From UHGV virus genome UHGV-0114363: DNA of 29,434 bases, one strand, 5' to 3'. The translations under genes were made by a program, and so were the position numbers. The notes below the pieces were generated by a model. It searched no databases. It saw only the letters and a program-made list of their open reading frames with translations, and was not told the origin of the DNA. Shown in pieces: positions 448 through 21,873 of this stretch; position 1 is the stretch's first letter, and each line of letters starts with the position of its first letter. Origin of the DNA: a virus.

Positions 448-515
448 ACAGGCGGTAGCCGATCAGCCTCGCAGAGCAGGACTCCGTTGAGCAGCCCAGC
501 TGCTAATAAGAGAAG

Positions 516-553
516 GTAAAGTAGAAGCACCGTTTACGGTGGGCCTACTTTAC
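516..553. repeat. Inverted repeat GTAAAGTAG / CTACTTTAC enclosing palindrome ACCGTTTACGGT; candidate oriT or operator element
   Basis: Perfect 9-bp arms at 516-524 and 545-553 with nested palindrome at 529-540; lies about 70 bp upstream of the NikA/MobC-like start codon; no flanking T-tract so not an intrinsic terminator. Confidence 0.4.
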
Positions 554-584
554 ATGTCCTGCCCTACATTTGCCGTTGTGAATC

Positions 585-717: not shown

Positions 718-1011
718 TTATTCTCGCGGCTTGGGTTTTGGCGGCCTGCCACGTTTCCTTTGAAACCTATTTATCTCTTTCGCTATATCGTCATTTTCTG
801 TCTTTGACTCAACAGATTTATCTATCCAATCCTTAACATCTTCTCTACGCCAGAGAAGACGTTTATTACCGGGAAGACGGCATCTTGGTGGAAGACATTT
901 TGGATTTCGCGTTGCATCACTGCGGATACTTTTTACAGTTTTCTTTAATGCAAAAGCCAACTCTTCAACGGTTATAAGTTCTGGCATAACTGATTTCATC
1001 GAAGAACCCAT
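718..1011 (-). CDS. AlpA-family helix-turn-helix regulator / excisionase-like protein with C-terminal AT-hook
   Basis: 97-aa ORF; LITVEELAFALKKTVKSIRS...LLWRREDVKDWI matches the AlpA/Xis-type HTH pattern; C-terminal KRGRPPKPKP is an AT-hook-like basic tail. Start could be 1011 or 999. Confidence 0.6.
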   Translation of the reverse strand: MGSSMKSVMPELITVEELAFALKKTVKSIRSDATRNPKCLPPRCRLPGNKRLLWRREDVKDWIDKSVESKTENDDIAKEINRFQRKRGRPPKPKPRE

Positions 1012-1033: not shown

Positions 1034-1061
1034 TTTAGCGGCTAAAATTTTAGCCGCTAAA
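1034..1061. promoter_or_regulatory. 28-bp perfect palindrome TTTAGCGGCTAAAATTTTAGCCGCTAAA (candidate operator)
   Basis: Arms 1034-1047 and 1048-1061 are exact reverse complements; sits 23-50 bp upstream of the AlpA-like start codon. Confidence 0.5.
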
Positions 1062-1311
1062 GTTTGCTAACCAACGTTATGAATTGAGAATAATTAAAAC
1101 TTACTGGCAAAAAGAATAATGTCAACAGGATTTTTATTCATCGGATTTTTACTCCATATGAAATTGGTTTTATTGACCGATTTCTGAATGACACTAAGGT
1201 TTTAATAATTCCTTTAATCTTTTTGGTTATATAAAAGGTTAAAGATCAGGTTAGAGAGGTGTGGAAAAGCGATATATTCATTTGTATATTATGACAATTT
1301 TAAATTATATC

Positions 1312-1372
1312 CGTACCTCAAATGTCATGAAAGCGTACCTCATATGTCATAAAGGCGTACCTCATATGTCAT
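1312..1372. repeat. Three iteron-like direct repeats with 22-bp phase (core CGTACCTCA(A/T)ATGTCAT)
   Basis: 17-bp cores at 1312-1328, 1334-1350 and 1356-1372; copies 2 and 3 identical, copy 1 differs at one base; followed by several hundred bp of very AT-rich non-coding DNA. Confidence 0.6.
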
Positions 1373-1460
1373 ATAATAAAAAATAAGCAAACAAGTTATA
1401 CACAATATTATTCACAGAATCTGTGGATAAATACACAGATTATACATGATAAAATAGATT

Positions 1461-1659
1461 GTTTAGCTAAACTAAATAGCAATAAATAAAATGAAACAAA
1501 ATGTAAATAACAGAGAGTTGTAGATAACTTATAAATTTGGTTAGCTAACCTTTATAAGAAACACTGTTTGTAAAAGATTCATTTCTGACAACGGATATAT
1601 CGAAATTTAGTAAGTAAAATGCCACAGCTAAATCTTTTATATCATTTGTTTAGCTATAC
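1461..1659. promoter_or_regulatory. Three dispersed palindromic sites with TTAGCTA core (candidate operators)
   Basis: GTTTAGCTAAAC at 1461-1472 (perfect palindrome), GGTTAGCTAACC at 1539-1550 (perfect palindrome), GTTTAGCTATAC at 1648-1659 (one mismatch); the TTTAGC half-site also occurs in the 28-bp palindrome at 1034-1061. A CACAGAATCTGTG palindrome lies at 1413-1425. Confidence 0.45.
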
Positions 1660-2499: not shown

Positions 2500-4989
2500 T
2501 TAATGTTCAATATCTATTTGATTATCAATTTGAATAATGTTTTGAATCTCACTGTAAATATCAATGTTCTCATCTGGTACATCTATGCTAACCAATAAAC
2601 TATATTTAACATTGTTAATATAGCGATCCTGCGCAGTACGATATTTCCACCATCCACCAACAGGATAGACAGCGATAGTATTCATCTCTGTTAAATCTGC
2701 AGCACTGCCTTTCCAAGCATCTGAGTGTAATGAACCTCTAACTCTGAGTTGAGGCCCCAGAAACCATCCTGACGCATCTCCTTCAGGTCCATTGTATTCT
2801 TCATTATTCGCATTACGGTTTATCGAAGCACGGAAATTTTCAAGGGTCTGATTAGGTCTAATAACTGCAAATCTCAATCCATGAGATTGATACGAATATT
2901 GTCGTCTGAATCCTTTTTGACTTGGATTAGGTTCAATAAAATACGACAATGTGATTCTTAAAATAACATTTGTTTCTGGTGGTAGTAAGCGAAGAGCTTC
3001 TACGGGCCAAGGGAGTGAAAACAGATGCATTTCATTCAATGTAGGATCAGTAGAACCATCTCTTTTAAATGGGGTGATTTCCGACTGAGATATTAATGTA
3101 AGTGCATTTTCCGCACTATGCATTGCTCGATTTAAATTAGGTACTCCATAACCAACCATCCTTAATAAGCTTTCTTTAGCCGATTTTGGTGTCCCCTGTG
3201 CACGTTCTGTTCTATATCGTTCGTGCATACGACTAGTCCATCTTGCTGTATGAACAAGTAATCCCCTAATAGTTTCAGGCCAATATTCTGGGTACTGAGC
3301 CATTAGCATAGCAGCATGTTTTGATACTAGAGCACAGGCTGCGCTAGTATCTGAATTAACTTCAAACAATTGATTTGTTGCCCTGCCAGAGGTTGTGAGC
3401 AAAGATAATTCAATTGTATTTGTGATTTCATCACGGCTAGGTGATATAAGTTTGTTTCCGCCTTCCTCTACTAAATCTGGCTTATATGGGGCATGCTTTT
3501 TCCATCCCCAGGATACCGATGACCGAGATGACGGTGCAATATCTTCTGACATAGCGAAAGGAGACCAACCATCATATTCGCGGTCTGTATGGGTTGTTTT
3601 ATCAGTATACGCCCCTACAGTTAATGCATTCCAAGATTGAGCAGGATCTTCAATTTCAGCAAGAGTCACTGAATCCCAATAATCTAATTCTAAATTTGTA
3701 GGTTGAGAGTTACCCGCAGAAATTATAAATAATCTGCGGATATCATCCTCTAAACCAAAACTAAACTTGTCAATCTCTGCAGACCATGAGGACGGTTGGC
3801 CTCCAAGAGTATTAGGCTCTGCTGTCACAGCAAGCGAATAAACTCTGCGCCAGTTCGGGTTTTCCAGCTCCAGACGACTTGACGTTCCTGTAGTAATAGC
3901 TCCATAAAGATTAGGATCATTAGTAGCTCTTGGAGGTAGTATCCTTCCTGATTCGATATTGTACGGAATCGAAATGTCCTGATCGTTCAATAAAACAGAC
4001 AGGAAATCTCCATAAACACATAGTCCTGCTTGTCTGGAACCGTGGTCATTATAAGGCCTTTGATTATAATCATCGAAAAGTGGCCAAGATATGTCCCAAG
4101 CAGCTGCCAGTGATGAGTTAGTAAATCTAGATAATAGTGGATTATTGTAGTTAACACCTGTATCTAATATACAAACAGAAACATCAGCTTCATTGTTACG
4201 CGTAATTCTTGCAGCAACATTTTCTGCCCACTGATGCTGTTCTGTAGGTAAGGAATTAACTATAACTGATATATCATCCCTCGCTGATCTTATCTCTTTT
4301 AAATTAGATATTAATTCAGGACAAACTTTTAATCTCGATAGACTCGTACGGATAAGAACAACAGTAGTATCGAAAAAATTAATAGAAGTATTCCCGAGCC
4401 TTCCATTAATTCTTTCGCATAAACGCCGAGCAATATTTAGCACATCCTCCTTATTACCCTTAAGCCAAAGCTCAAACCACTTTTCAACACCGTGATCATC
4501 CGGAATAAGATCTTTTTTATCTGTCCAGAAAGAAGTTATATCTGCTAACTCGATATTTTGTATGCTATCAATTAACAAATGATTTCTAGGGAACTCGATA
4601 CCATCCTTCGATGGATTCAAATAGTCATTTATTTTTTTAGTGAATTTAGTTCTGTCATTTTCATTAATGTATATAATCGCAGTTTCACGATTATTTGATT
4701 TAACTAAAGAACAAAGCTTGAAATAAGTATTATCGATTTTATCTATAGGAAGATCGCATTGTTCAAAACTGATTAGCCTAACATAAATCCCTTTTTCATC
4801 AGTAACAGGGGGAAGCCTCGGTCTTTCATCATAATGATTCAATATACGGCTATACTGATTTAGTAATGATATACCATGTACCGCTCGATCACGAGCTGGG
4901 ACTTGGGGACTACGACCATTGCTCCTAGAGCGATAGTTTTCGGGGGAAACATAGCCGTTTAATAAAATATGCCTCTTGTTGGTAGTCAT
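2500..4989 (-). CDS. Subtilisin-like serine peptidase (S8 family), 829 aa, with extra N- and C-terminal domains
   Basis: Catalytic residues in canonical subtilase order: Asp in VCILDTGVN (about residue 276), His in YNDHGSRQ (316), oxyanion Asn in FIISAGNSQ (427), Ser in NSDTSAACALV (549); ALTVGAYT motif present. AGGGA Shine-Dalgarno overlaps the 3' end of the upstream ATPase gene (8-nt gap). Confidence 0.8.
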   Translation of the reverse strand: MTTNKRHILLNGYVSPENYRSRSNGRSPQVPARDRAVHGISLLNQYSRILNHYDERPRLPPVTDEKGIYVRLISFEQCDLPIDKIDNTYFKLCSLVKSNNRETAIIYINENDRTKFTKKINDYLNPSKDGIEFPRNHLLIDSIQNIELADITSFWTDKKDLIPDDHGVEKWFELWLKGNKEDVLNIARRLCERINGRLGNTSINFFDTTVVLIRTSLSRLKVCPELISNLKEIRSARDDISVIVNSLPTEQHQWAENVAARITRNNEADVSVCILDTGVNYNNPLLSRFTNSSLAAAWDISWPLFDDYNQRPYNDHGSRQAGLCVYGDFLSVLLNDQDISIPYNIESGRILPPRATNDPNLYGAITTGTSSRLELENPNWRRVYSLAVTAEPNTLGGQPSSWSAEIDKFSFGLEDDIRRLFIISAGNSQPTNLELDYWDSVTLAEIEDPAQSWNALTVGAYTDKTTHTDREYDGWSPFAMSEDIAPSSRSSVSWGWKKHAPYKPDLVEEGGNKLISPSRDEITNTIELSLLTTSGRATNQLFEVNSDTSAACALVSKHAAMLMAQYPEYWPETIRGLLVHTARWTSRMHERYRTERAQGTPKSAKESLLRMVGYGVPNLNRAMHSAENALTLISQSEITPFKRDGSTDPTLNEMHLFSLPWPVEALRLLPPETNVILRITLSYFIEPNPSQKGFRRQYSYQSHGLRFAVIRPNQTLENFRASINRNANNEEYNGPEGDASGWFLGPQLRVRGSLHSDAWKGSAADLTEMNTIAVYPVGGWWKYRTAQDRYINNVKYSLLVSIDVPDENIDIYSEIQNIIQIDNQIDIEH

Positions 4990-4997
4990 TTCATCCC

Positions 4998-5984
4998 TTA
5001 TTGTCTACTTTCTTGCCTACGCTTTATAGCCTTTACTAACAAATCGGTTGTAATATTGTTTGCATTATAAAGCACTGATTCTTTGGCAGCATCTTCACTT
5101 GCTCGCGTGATCTCCGCTGCACTTAGACCTGAAGCACTATCAATGATCTCACTCCAAAATAAATTACCGAGGTCAAAGACAGCGAGTCTCTGTTCAATAA
5201 GATTCCTGATTAGATTATCCTCAGGCCTTGTGAACGGTATAATATCGTCAAATCGTCTATATAAGGCGCGATCTAAAAGCTCTGGATGATTGGTTGCAGC
5301 TAAAACTATGCTCTCAGAATCATCCTGCTCTACAAACATTAAAAAAGAATTTAAGACCCTACGAATTTCTCCAACGTCATTCTGAGCGCCACGCTGAGTT
5401 CCTATAGCATCGAACTCGTCAAAAAAATATACAGCTCTTGTTTGCCGTATGTGGTCAAAAATTAAACGCAGCTTAGCTGCAGTTTCACCCATATAGCGAG
5501 TGATTAGATTATCTAAGACGACTGTATAAAGTGGTAGCTTTAACTCTGTAGCAATGACTGATGCGGACATTGTCTTACCAGTACCGGGAGGACCAGTGAA
5601 AAGAATTTTTCTTCTTGGAATAAGCCCAAACTCAGAAAGTTTATCTTTCTGTTTTTGTTCAAGCAGAACCTGATTCAATCTTTCCCTAACGCTTCCAGAA
5701 ATCACCAGATCTTGAAGATGTACTGGCTTGTTCGTTTGCTCAAGTAACCCCTTAAGATCACCATCAGGCTGCTTAACAAATGGTGTAAGTCGTTTTTCAA
5801 CTAAACCTACAGAACTCGTTGTTTTCTGATTTTTATCAACTAAGTTTTTTATATCATTAGCAAGCTTATGATGACCTTGCCTTGCTTCCTTAGCTGCCAC
5901 CTGCAAAGCAATAGAAAAGAAACGCTGATCATCACGATCAACGTGGCTTTTCAATAAAGCTTTGATCTGCTCTGCAGTAGCCAT
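4998..5984 (-). CDS. AAA+ ATPase (classical AAA clade), 328 aa
   Basis: Walker A GPPGTGKT (131-138), Walker B VYFFDEFD (about 186-192), sensor-1 LAATNHPELLD (about 229-238) and RRFD (243-246); roughly 100-aa helical N-terminal region; first gene of a two-gene operon with the S8 peptidase. Confidence 0.85.
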   Translation of the reverse strand: MATAEQIKALLKSHVDRDDQRFFSIALQVAAKEARQGHHKLANDIKNLVDKNQKTTSSVGLVEKRLTPFVKQPDGDLKGLLEQTNKPVHLQDLVISGSVRERLNQVLLEQKQKDKLSEFGLIPRRKILFTGPPGTGKTMSASVIATELKLPLYTVVLDNLITRYMGETAAKLRLIFDHIRQTRAVYFFDEFDAIGTQRGAQNDVGEIRRVLNSFLMFVEQDDSESIVLAATNHPELLDRALYRRFDDIIPFTRPEDNLIRNLIEQRLAVFDLGNLFWSEIIDSASGLSAAEITRASEDAAKESVLYNANNITTDLLVKAIKRRQESRQ

Positions 5985-6448
5985 AACCCCTCATACTCCC
6001 TTGTTCTCTTGTTGCAAAGTTTACTATAAATTCATTTAGTTCGACATCGTTACCTACCTGCTCATTACAGGAAAGTAATACCTTCATGAGCGTATCATCA
6101 ATGATCAAAGTGTAATCAAACACCTAGGCATAGTACCTTCACTACGTGAACTGTATCACTCATTGTTATGTAACCTGAGTGTCCCTTTCTGGCACTTAGC
6201 TCTATCGGATAATGTATTTAAGCTGTTAATTTATAAGATTTTTCATCACTAAACTGTCTTTCATGCAACGCATCGATAAGGTCAACACATTACGTTTATA
6301 AGGAAGTAGTTTGTTTAGCGTAATGATGCAAATGCTGACCAATTAGCTTTGCCACAATTTTGCCACACCTACAACGCGCAAAATTGCACATTAGTGTTGA
6401 ACAAAGCAAAATACTGCAATAGTAACTTGATGATTTTACGAGAAAAGA

Positions 6449-6494
6449 TGGTGCCGATAATAGGAGTCGAACCTACGACCTTCGCATTACGAAT
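6449..6494 (-). other. Partial tRNA-Thr(CGU) 3' end (46 nt): anticodon loop through CCA; att core repeat
   Basis: Minus-strand sequence ATTCGTAATGCGAAGGTCGTAGGTTCGACTCCTATTATCGGCACCA has a CGT anticodon loop, GGTTCGACTCC T-arm and terminal CCA; no D-arm or 5' acceptor half follows, so it is a 3' fragment typical of an integrase att duplication. Matches my recollection of enterobacterial thrW. Confidence 0.7.
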
Positions 6495-20931: not shown

Positions 20932-21873
20932 TCAGATACCGTCCACGTAGGACAGGGTTTCTTTGTACACTGGCTCAACCGCACCGAGCTTGCCGTAGTA
21001 GGTCGCAATCTGATACAGACCGCGATACTGGACAGGAACGCTCTGCAACGGCACCAGCGGATAGCGCACGTATTTCTTGTCGTTGGTGTAGGCGATCATA
21101 CGGTCTTTACCGCCAACCCCACGCCCTTTCAGCCATTTGACCGCTTTGATTTCAAGCGGAACGCCGTTCTGGTGGAAAGCGATAGTGTTCACAGCCAGAT
21201 AGGTCAGCAGTGACTGGTTACCCGCTTCGGAAACCTTACGGCTCGCCAGCAGTGAATACTGCTCTGGCGGAATGCGCAGATCAGAAGGCACGATGGAATA
21301 ACCGGATGCTGCCCAGGCATTAGACAGAATGCTGTTCACGCTATCGAGGATCTCGTCGTTGGTTGAGTTCGCCCAGGTCTTCGGCGCGTTGTTCAGCGTC
21401 ACACCGACGAGGTTTGCCAGACCTTTCAGGCCGAGTGCGTCATCACCGATGTAAACCTGCTCGTCGTTGTCCATCTGCCATTTGAGCTGCATCCCGTCGT
21501 ACTTCTGGGTATCAATCGGGCGGCCTACCTGCTGAGCAGCTGCCAGCTCTACAACGGTCCAGCCCAGTTCCATACCCCAGAGGTTCAGTGGATTGCCGTC
21601 TTTGCTGATATCCACGTTCACGCCAGCAATAGCGGTGGAGTCTTTGCCTACCCAGTTTTTACCATTCGGATTTGCACCAGTACCCGCAGCGGCGAAGCTG
21701 GTATTCGTCCAGCTGGAAATGTCATCTGCGATAGACACGTCTTCACGCAGTTGAATATCTCGGGTCCAGGTGTACCCCACCAGAGGCAGGTTCAGCGTCT
21801 GGTCGAGTCGCTCCAGCTCCCCGATGAGAAAGGCACCGGAGCTATCTACGGTTGCCTGATCAAAAGTAATCAT
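20932..21873 (-). CDS. Major capsid protein
   Basis: 313-aa protein in canonical position after scaffold/protease-like and decoration-like genes. Confidence 0.6.
   Translation of the reverse strand: MITFDQATVDSSGAFLIGELERLDQTLNLPLVGYTWTRDIQLREDVSIADDISSWTNTSFAAAGTGANPNGKNWVGKDSTAIAGVNVDISKDGNPLNLWGMELGWTVVELAAAQQVGRPIDTQKYDGMQLKWQMDNDEQVYIGDDALGLKGLANLVGVTLNNAPKTWANSTNDEILDSVNSILSNAWAASGYSIVPSDLRIPPEQYSLLASRKVSEAGNQSLLTYLAVNTIAFHQNGVPLEIKAVKWLKGRGVGGKDRMIAYTNDKKYVRYPLVPLQSVPVQYRGLYQIATYYGKLGAVEPVYKETLSYVDGI

Follow-up and report, generated by a model that had tools for sequence, protein, structure and literature searches.

The subject of this analysis is a set of three short repeats near the left end of UHGV virus genome UHGV-0114363, which was examined as one strand of 29,434 nucleotides (hereafter the window). 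The leftmost 6.5 kb of the window is not phage DNA but part of a genomic island of about 12 kb that is integrated at thrW in Escherichia coli, and the repeats lie in an intergenic region of this island (Table 1). Their core, CGTACCTCA(A/T)ATGTCAT, begins at 1312, 1334 and 1356, and these are its sole matches in the window when up to two mismatches are allowed; no match was found in 100 dinucleotide-preserving shuffles of the window (expected by chance, 0.00), and Tandem Repeats Finder returned a period of 22, 2.8 copies, 92% matches and a score of 103. An earlier reading made from the letters alone (the sequence-only reading) had described three exact-phase 22-bp repeats followed on the right by AT-rich DNA free of open reading frames (ORFs), and had taken them for a candidate replication origin. 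Both descriptions were borne out, with a GC content of 0.25-0.27 over 1301-1700 and no ORF of at least 50 aa between 1012 and 1920. As set out below, homology identifies the three repeats as TrfA-type iterons of a replication origin, of the kind found on IncP-1 plasmids.

Table 1. Positions of the island features in the window (sequences as found; strand given where one applies).
Feature	Position	Strand	Sequence or remark
traJ, oriT-binding relaxosome accessory protein, 121 aa	82..447	-	NCBIfam TraJ equivalog, 163 bits (cut-off 134); Pfam NikA-like
IncP-type oriT	465..566	-	Rfam "traJ-II RNA" RF01760, 87.3 bits; upstream of traJ
97-aa conserved island protein	718..1011	-	first gene of leftward operon
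KorB operators (OB), two exact	1034..1061		TTTAGCGGCTAAA 1034-1046; TTTAGCCGCTAAA 1049-1061
AT-rich GGTT-initiated repeats, 12-14 nt, four to five	1198..1256		GGTTTTAATAATTC / CTTTAATCTTTTT / GGTTATATAAAA / GGTTAAAGATCA / GGTTAGAG
Extra DnaA-box-like site	1260..1268	-	TTTTCCACA; spacer between AT-rich repeats and iteron 1
Iteron 1	1312..1328	-	CGTACCTCAAATGTCAT; complement TGACATTTGAGGTAC is in RK2 consensus orientation
Iteron 2	1334..1350	-	CGTACCTCATATGTCAT
Iteron 3	1356..1372	-	CGTACCTCATATGTCAT
DnaA-box cluster	1396..1430		TTATACACA 1396-1404 (+); TTATTCACA 1408-1416 (+); TTATCCACA 1422-1430 (-)
KorA operator (OA), exact	1461..1472		GTTTAGCTAAAC
Second KorA-operator-like site	1648..1659		GTTTAGCTATAC; one mismatch; right edge of conserved backbone
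Island end, 47-bp att repeat	6448..6494		3' part of tRNA-Thr (thrW); prophage then in tandem

The traJ gene of the island is about 78% identical in DNA sequence to that of conjugative plasmids of 41-69 kb from Enterobacteriaceae, which are IncP-1-like, belong to type MOBP/MPF_T and have trfA, ssb, korA-incC-korB and both the trb and tra operons. The sequence-only reading had proposed to look for the repeats beside a rep gene in related DNA, and such an array was found next to trfA in these plasmids. Enterobacterial members of the group (among them the closest sequences, such as pEC187_3, NZ_CP061111.1; p14EC001a, NZ_CP024128.1; and pCFSA664-2, NZ_CP033354.2) have three to seven clustered copies at 22-bp phase, plus two more, next to trfA. 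On pEC187_3 there are 7+2 copies of GCGTACCTCA(A/T)ATGTC(A/G)T at this phase adjoining trfA, and the plasmid loci L017 and L018 have seven GCGCCCCTCA(A/T)(A/G)TGTCA units in exact 22-bp phase, plus two, directly beside the gene. The window iterons are of exactly the type of the pEC187_3 subgroup (the GCGTACCTCAWATGTCAT type), the spacing of their starts equals the plasmid phase, and iteron 1 shares its 17-mer type, its 22-bp phase and its offset from the DNA-unwinding element (DUE) motif with iteron 1 of the pEC187_3 oriV. Compared with the RK2 iteron consensus taken from the literature, TGACA(G/C)(A/T)TGAGGGGC (PMC9499019), the complement of the window unit, TGACATATGAGGTAC, matches at 12 of 15 positions, the mismatches being at 6, 13 and 14. 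In a metagenome scan, trfA-linked loci had 3, 5, 6 or 7 clustered iterons and two near trfA, a number that thus varies within this subgroup. TAC-type arrays adjoin a TrfA with at least 86% identity to the pEC187_3 protein and CCC-type arrays one with 76-80%; to judge from these sequences, each iteron type has its own TrfA clade. The proposal that the repeats are origin iterons is thus upheld by homology, the sequence, phase and flanks all matching the array beside trfA.

The correspondence extends well beyond the repeats themselves. Positions 1185-1450 of the window align collinearly with the plasmid origins through the GGTT repeats, an indel-free spacer, iterons 1-3 and the DnaA-box region, and island and plasmids are nearly identical in iterons 1-3 and in the last AT-rich repeats. 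To the left of their iterons the plasmids carry GGTTAAA-type repeats of 12-13 nt and then a GC-rich block, and the GGTT repeats of the island include GGTTAAAGATCNGGTTAGA, identical to that of the plasmids; GGTTAAAGATC starts 79 bp before the core of iteron 1 in the window, in 18 of the 19 other islands and in two of the three plasmids, with an overall range of 76-79 bp. The GGTT block is thus the homologue of the AT-rich repeats of the plasmid oriV and, by analogy with the architecture of RK2 (PMC4980987), the predicted DUE. On the other side, the first DnaA box follows the last iteron core after 36-37 bp, as TTATACACA in the islands and as TTATCCACA at +37 in the plasmids, and the DnaA-box-like site in the left spacer has a plasmid counterpart as well, either TTTTCCACA or TTTTGCACA (L017 2071, L018 48446). 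In RK2 the order of oriV is DnaA boxes, iterons, DUE (PMC4980987), and because the island elements follow the same order, the unwinding element is expected to lie left of the repeats. The sequence-only reading had placed it in the roughly 500 bp to their right, a suggestion that finds no support, as the homologous GGTT block lies on the left and the right side holds DnaA boxes and KorA operators. Iterons 4-7 of the plasmids are absent in register from the island, whereby the offset between the last core and the DnaA box is kept, and the trfA-proximal iteron pair is missing too; on alignment, the island looks like a plasmid origin from which iterons were taken out in exact 22-bp units.

The reading that we favour, with a probability of roughly 60%, is that TrfA binds the repeats as the iterons of a shortened, orphan oriV of IncP-1 type, which sits on a mobilizable thrW island without rep gene or relaxase and would be fired in trans by the TrfA of a helper plasmid. 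It builds on the observed identity of the iterons with trfA-linked plasmid iterons, the conserved geometry, the conservation among diverged islands and the absence of a rep gene. Several points weigh against it. The island has three iterons compared with five in the minimal origin of RK2 (PMC4980987), and most related plasmids have 5-7 as well as two near trfA; three may be enough for an origin, as the trfA-linked oriV of L028 with just three clustered iterons would suggest, but L028 is a short metagenome assembly in which the repeat has possibly collapsed. The island lacks the GC-rich block that is present in L017, L018 and L022 and has AT-rich DNA and the KorB operators in its place. Guanines 13 and 14, whose importance for TrfA contacts has been reported for RK2, are T and A in the window iterons, and the iterons of pEC187_3-type plasmids carry the same T and A at these positions. 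The DnaA boxes are imperfectly conserved, as the divergent island L021 has no exact box in the cluster that corresponds to 1396-1430. Among 5,426 complete E. coli genomes, the region had 222 chromosomal and 28 plasmid matches over 243 genomes, and island and IncP-like plasmid occur together in at most one of these 243, the ceiling being set by the single genome with matches in two records. Finally, a TrfA-responsive origin could be harmful while the island is integrated, and its restriction to the excised form is not explained by the data.

The main rival to the orphan-origin reading is that the iterons bind the TrfA of the helper without starting replication, and so act as a TrfA sink or handcuffing partner in incompatibility or copy control that lowers the copy number of the helper or makes it unstable, with an advantage for the island or its host. 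Just three or four iterons, with the GC-rich block and the two trfA-proximal iterons lost, would suit such a role, and the defence genes carried by the island are in keeping with it. RK2 replication is negatively controlled mainly through iteron-mediated handcuffing, and the addition of external iterons inhibits it (PMC5397158); PIME1, of the PIME family discussed below, lowers the amplification of pB10, for which its authors suspect incompatibility (bioRxiv 10.64898/2026.01.12.698999). A sink, however, needs iterons alone, whereas here the GGTT repeats, their 79-bp offset and a DnaA box at +36/37 have all been kept as in working plasmid origins. Although we consider a pure sink rather unlikely, the roles of sink and origin are compatible and both could hold.

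The sequence-only reading had also tied its proposal to the conservation of the repeats in homologous islands, and this was found: in every homologous island examined they are kept in phase, in three copies or, in a few cases, four. In an alignment of six island variants, whose adjacent 97-aa protein ranges down to 81% identity, the iteron cores, the GGTT repeats (nearly), the DnaA-box region and the sequences of two KorB and two KorA operators are invariant, against intervening spacers that fall to 36-55% identity in the most diverged island. When metagenomes were scanned with the DUE motif, the loci linked to the 97-aa gene all had three iterons (four in two cases). Island arrays can be pure TAC, pure CCC or mixed within three or four units (loci L025, L036, L040, L046, L058, L069 and L073), unlike the trfA-linked plasmid arrays, which are uniform in iteron type; mixed arrays might broaden the range of helpers. 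In the four-iteron variant L014/L015/L040 the left half is nearly identical to the plasmid origin of L018, a similarity that indicates recombination between islands and helper plasmids.

These data bear on a second alternative, namely that an IncP-1-like plasmid backbone was captured at the formation of the island and has left this region behind as an inert relic. The origin is indeed truncated in comparison with the plasmids, with fewer iterons and neither GC-rich block nor trfA, and the island is clearly built from plasmid parts, as is also apparent from the passages on this element family in PMC5575072. Against this stand the preservation of the motifs amid diverging spacers, even at 81% identity of the neighbouring protein, and the retention of 3 x 22 bp, in copy number and phase, in about 30 independent metagenome and genome loci. 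Furthermore, the arrays share the type-defining bases and switch between two plasmid iteron types, with no random decay. A pattern of conservation that is so specific to the motifs seems hard to reconcile with an inert relic, which we regard as quite improbable.

No initiator gene had been visible to the sequence-only reading, and none emerged from the searches: there is no Rep family among the Pfam matches of the first ten ORFs, no Rep or TrfA when all conserved proteins of the island were compared with Pfam and NCBIfam, and no credible match in tblastn of three TrfA proteins against the window and 19 island loci, which together cover whole islands. One weak TrfA match (E 0.006-0.08) at 21210-21482 falls inside a prophage gene and was discarded as chance. 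According to the island gene lists and family searches, the island has no relaxase, no ssb and no trfA in cis. The earlier suggestion that the initiator is encoded off-window or by a helper phage holds in its first part and fails in its second, the predicted helper being a conjugative IncP-1-like plasmid. A phage-inducible island with a helper phage was considered and rejected, as megablast of positions 1-2500 against 50,697 phage records gave no match and the prophage begins only after the att site at 6494. ARAGORN found nothing, and an Rfam scan returned traJ-II only (465-564), which corresponds to the oriT.

Neither of the two binding proteins that the sequence-only reading had put forward found support. 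The HigA-like gene lies in variable cargo past about 1659 and is swapped for other helix-turn-helix (HTH) genes while the iterons stay, and the 97-aa protein, which was taken to be AlpA-like, has no significant AlpA match. That the repeats are operators through which one of these two proteins controls a promoter in the 900-bp intergenic region, as might be suspected because repeat 3 runs into a TATAAT hexamer (1370-1375) and small HTH genes flank the region, is highly improbable, since the same repeats lie beside trfA in plasmids, the 97-aa protein has no tblastn match on L017 and L018, the sole HigA-like relative on L018 (43% identical) is located beyond the GC-rich side of oriV, unlike its placement in the island, the HigA-like gene is exchanged among islands with unchanged repeats, and a promoter consensus scan gave fewer promoter-like sites than shuffles and none that uses the TATAAT at the end of repeat 3.

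In addition to the oriV-like region, the island holds an IncP-1-backbone oriT and Kor operators. The OB pair, identified with the sequence given in PMC11790492, is situated 23-50 bp upstream of the 97-aa gene, and the OB 13-mer occurs 12-13 times on each IncP-1-like plasmid. The OA consensus was taken from PMC2665229 and PMC11790492; on the plasmids the exact 12-mer is found only before ssb-trfA and korA (L017) or before korA (L018), and the second KorA-like site of the window is exact in some other islands, for example L020. The bracketing of the oriV-like segment by Kor operators recalls the long-range silencing of RK2 by a KorB clamp and KorA lock. A putative TrbA operator sequence, CGATATATCG, had no exact copy in the window or on the plasmids, and no claim is based on it. 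In L017 and L018 the intergenic region between traK and traJ has nearly the same sequence as the oriT region, 465-566. The island oriT contains an 18-nt inverted repeat (516-533 / 536-553) followed by ATGTCCTGCCC, with a nic-like motif at ATGTCCTG/CCC (554-564, + strand), in which the slash marks the nick position that we presume by analogy with RP4. To judge from this overlap, the Rfam "traJ-II RNA" motif may be the DNA oriT of IncP-type elements rather than an RNA.

The gene order of the island was read from contigs that encode the same TraJ and 97-aa protein. It recurs as integrase, a variable protein with hydrophobic stretches, a VbhA-like gene, a 70-aa ORF, TrbL, a 57-aa lipoprotein, TrbJ, TraJ and the 97-aa gene, and continues with the iteron intergenic region, a small HTH gene and variable defence cargo; the integrase, trbJ and trbL genes of the present copy are off-window, to the left. 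In L012 and L014 the same island encodes TrbJ (382 bits, cut-off 286), TrbL (272 bits, cut-off 129) and a 357-aa tyrosine recombinase. Identity to the plasmid proteins is 64-74% for TraJ, 89-92% for TrbJ, 22% for the TrbK-like protein and 56-58% for TrbL. The TrbK-like 57-aa lipoprotein gene, also off-window, lies between trbJ and trbL (L009 11818-11991), and its 22% identity to the entry-exclusion protein of the plasmids, beside a TrbJ of about 90%, would fit an entry exclusion that is evaded or altered. The 97-aa gene always adjoins the oriV-like region, at -225 bp, and its product, which sits where alpA is expected in PIMEs, has a sub-threshold match to HTH_17 (E 0.23) and no AlpA-family match; it may be an HTH or excision regulator. 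Further conserved island proteins in the Pfam and NCBIfam searches are HigA and proteins of 296 aa, with long hydrophobic stretches, 70 aa and 75 aa, the 296-aa protein being termed a putative membrane protein in the passages on the related island in PMC5575072.

The island adjoins proBA-thrW, and several E. coli chromosomes match the window with 100% identity. In L012 and L009 each end of the island carries a copy of the 47-bp att sequence, and the annotation of E. coli ECONIH4 has a tRNA-Thr at the corresponding place; contigs of island length (about 12 kb) break inside the att repeat, which has no bearing on excision. The element is common, and about 1,900-2,500 blocks in the assembly collection contain its neighbour genes. 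With one genome per species, an exact-pattern scan for two iterons gave no match and a protein-based scan found two Enterobacter loci only; the island is strain-variable and mostly missing from species representatives. From 6495 to 29434 the window is occupied by a tailed prophage at the same tRNA site, whose genes for tail-fibre assembly, baseplate, capsid and terminase lie on the minus strand.

The homology that links the window to many other E. coli islands does not continue past 1656-1659. Left of this edge, a palindrome at 1528-1558 is centred on GGTTAGCTAACC, with a DNA hairpin fold z of -3.0 here and -5.2 in L021, and its arms vary compensatorily (TTATAAA.../...TTTATAA here, CCACAAA.../...TTTGTGG in L007 and L021). 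Two further blocks are invariant in all variants, AAAATGAAACAAAATGTAAA (1488-1507) and AACAACGGATATATCGAA (1585-1602, with the core palindrome GATATATC). Within 1660-2235, the pattern CCGAC.GGTGAGGCC.GG..TGA.AATTTG is common to the window and the divergent island L021. The HigA-family antitoxin-like gene (PGAP start 1975), for which no toxin partner was seen, and its GC-richer 5' region (about 1700-1900) are exchangeable cargo. The cargo at 2500-5984 consists of an AAA ATPase (328 aa) and an S8 subtilase (829 aa), a pair that we take to resemble the IetAS defence system, and in other island copies this place is taken by genes of the retron, NACHT/STAND, GmrSD, Pycsar, Hachiman or Shedu kind.

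Together, these features suggest how the orphan origin might work. In a cell with no IncP-1-like plasmid there would be no initiator, and the origin would stay silent. If a matching plasmid were present, such as one of the pEC187_3 kind with "GGTAC" iterons, its TrfA would bind the three in-phase iterons, host DnaA would occupy the boxes at 1396-1430, the GGTT block would melt, and the excised island would replicate as a plasmid-like circle. In RK2, oriV and trans-acting TrfA suffice for replication (PMC5397158), and for this reason a helper with matching iterons would be expected to fire the island origin, most plausibly on the excised circle. TrfA binding, origin firing, its timing after excision and the part played by KorA and KorB are what we infer here. 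Transfer would start from the IncP-type oriT, with the relaxase and pore of the helper and the TraJ and TrbJ/K/L of the island, and the KorB and KorA operators that flank the origin would tie the region into the regulatory and partition network of the helper. More tentatively, and with somewhat less than even confidence, we propose that the island is an integrated satellite replicon that has outsourced all trans functions and kept the cis sites of its helper (oriV, oriT and Kor). Such an element would form a TrfA-driven, KorB-handled circle only with a matching helper, would lower helper copy number through competition for TrfA, would serve more than one helper lineage by means of mixed arrays, and would sense the helper through its Kor operators.

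Compared with the oriV of IncP-1 plasmids (RK2/RP4), the island thus has the same 17-bp TrfA-type iterons, 22-bp phase and element order, and shares its offsets with the closest plasmids; it differs in having three iterons rather than 5-7 and in its location, flanked by KorB and KorA operators on a chromosomal island. The PIME family, defined in January 2026, was searched for with the replicase as a core gene, and PIME1, which excises and replicates when a helper is present, uses its own repA-oriV (bioRxiv 10.64898/2026.01.12.698999). PIMEs resemble the window island in their tyrosine integrase, an IncP-type oriT with its own traJ, trbJ-(trbK)-trbL, a large defence cargo and a predicted or shown dependence on IncP helpers. 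In contrast, the window island has no replicase, carries the origin type of its helper and is located at thrW, not guaA. The PIME paper, which mentions TrfA, KorA and KorB zero times, allows that variants without a core component may exist (bioRxiv 10.64898/2026.01.12.698999). GIsul2 and the "IncP island" (PMC5704250) are known IncP-dependent islands with trbJ-trbK-trbL and are related to PIMEs.

The same element family is represented by StmGI_0323, which is described as a "plasmid-like" thrW island of Salmonella Typhimurium in the relevant passages of PMC5575072. According to these passages, it is found at thrW, sometimes with a prophage in tandem, and its ORFs are HigA, a 97-aa protein, TraJ (121 aa), TrbJ (264 aa), a 57-aa protein, TrbL, a 70-aa protein, a membrane protein and a recombinase. 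An origin, iterons, an oriT or Kor operators do not come up in these passages, which give ORFs only. SGI1 with its IncA/IncC helpers is comparable in its helper-triggered excision and plasmid-like replication, and likewise in that its own subunits remodel the mating pore and that mimic sites make use of the partition system of the helper (PMC7433901, PMC7826253, PMC10954446). However, SGI1 encodes its own initiator, RepA, and its oriV is unrelated to that of the helper, whereas the window island would borrow the initiator. In the literature searched, we found no island with a helper-type oriV and no rep gene; the borrowed-origin architecture and the wiring to Kor operators therefore appear to be undescribed there, while the island family and its IncP dependence are already known or expected.

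Among the major carriers of defence and resistance genes are mobilizable islands that live as parasites of conjugative plasmids, and how such islands sense their helper and are maintained after excision is an open question, as stated by the authors of the PIME study (bioRxiv 10.64898/2026.01.12.698999). In the known cases, SGI1, PIME1 and the GIsul2 type, the island brings its own initiator. If the orphan-origin reading is true, replication that depends strictly on the TrfA of the helper would give this common element a simple helper sensor of its own and a direct path to incompatibility with the helper, and helper specificity would be predictable from the iteron type and hence readable in the sequence. 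On the more tentative satellite-replicon reading, the Kor operators would represent the long-sought route by which such islands sense their helper.

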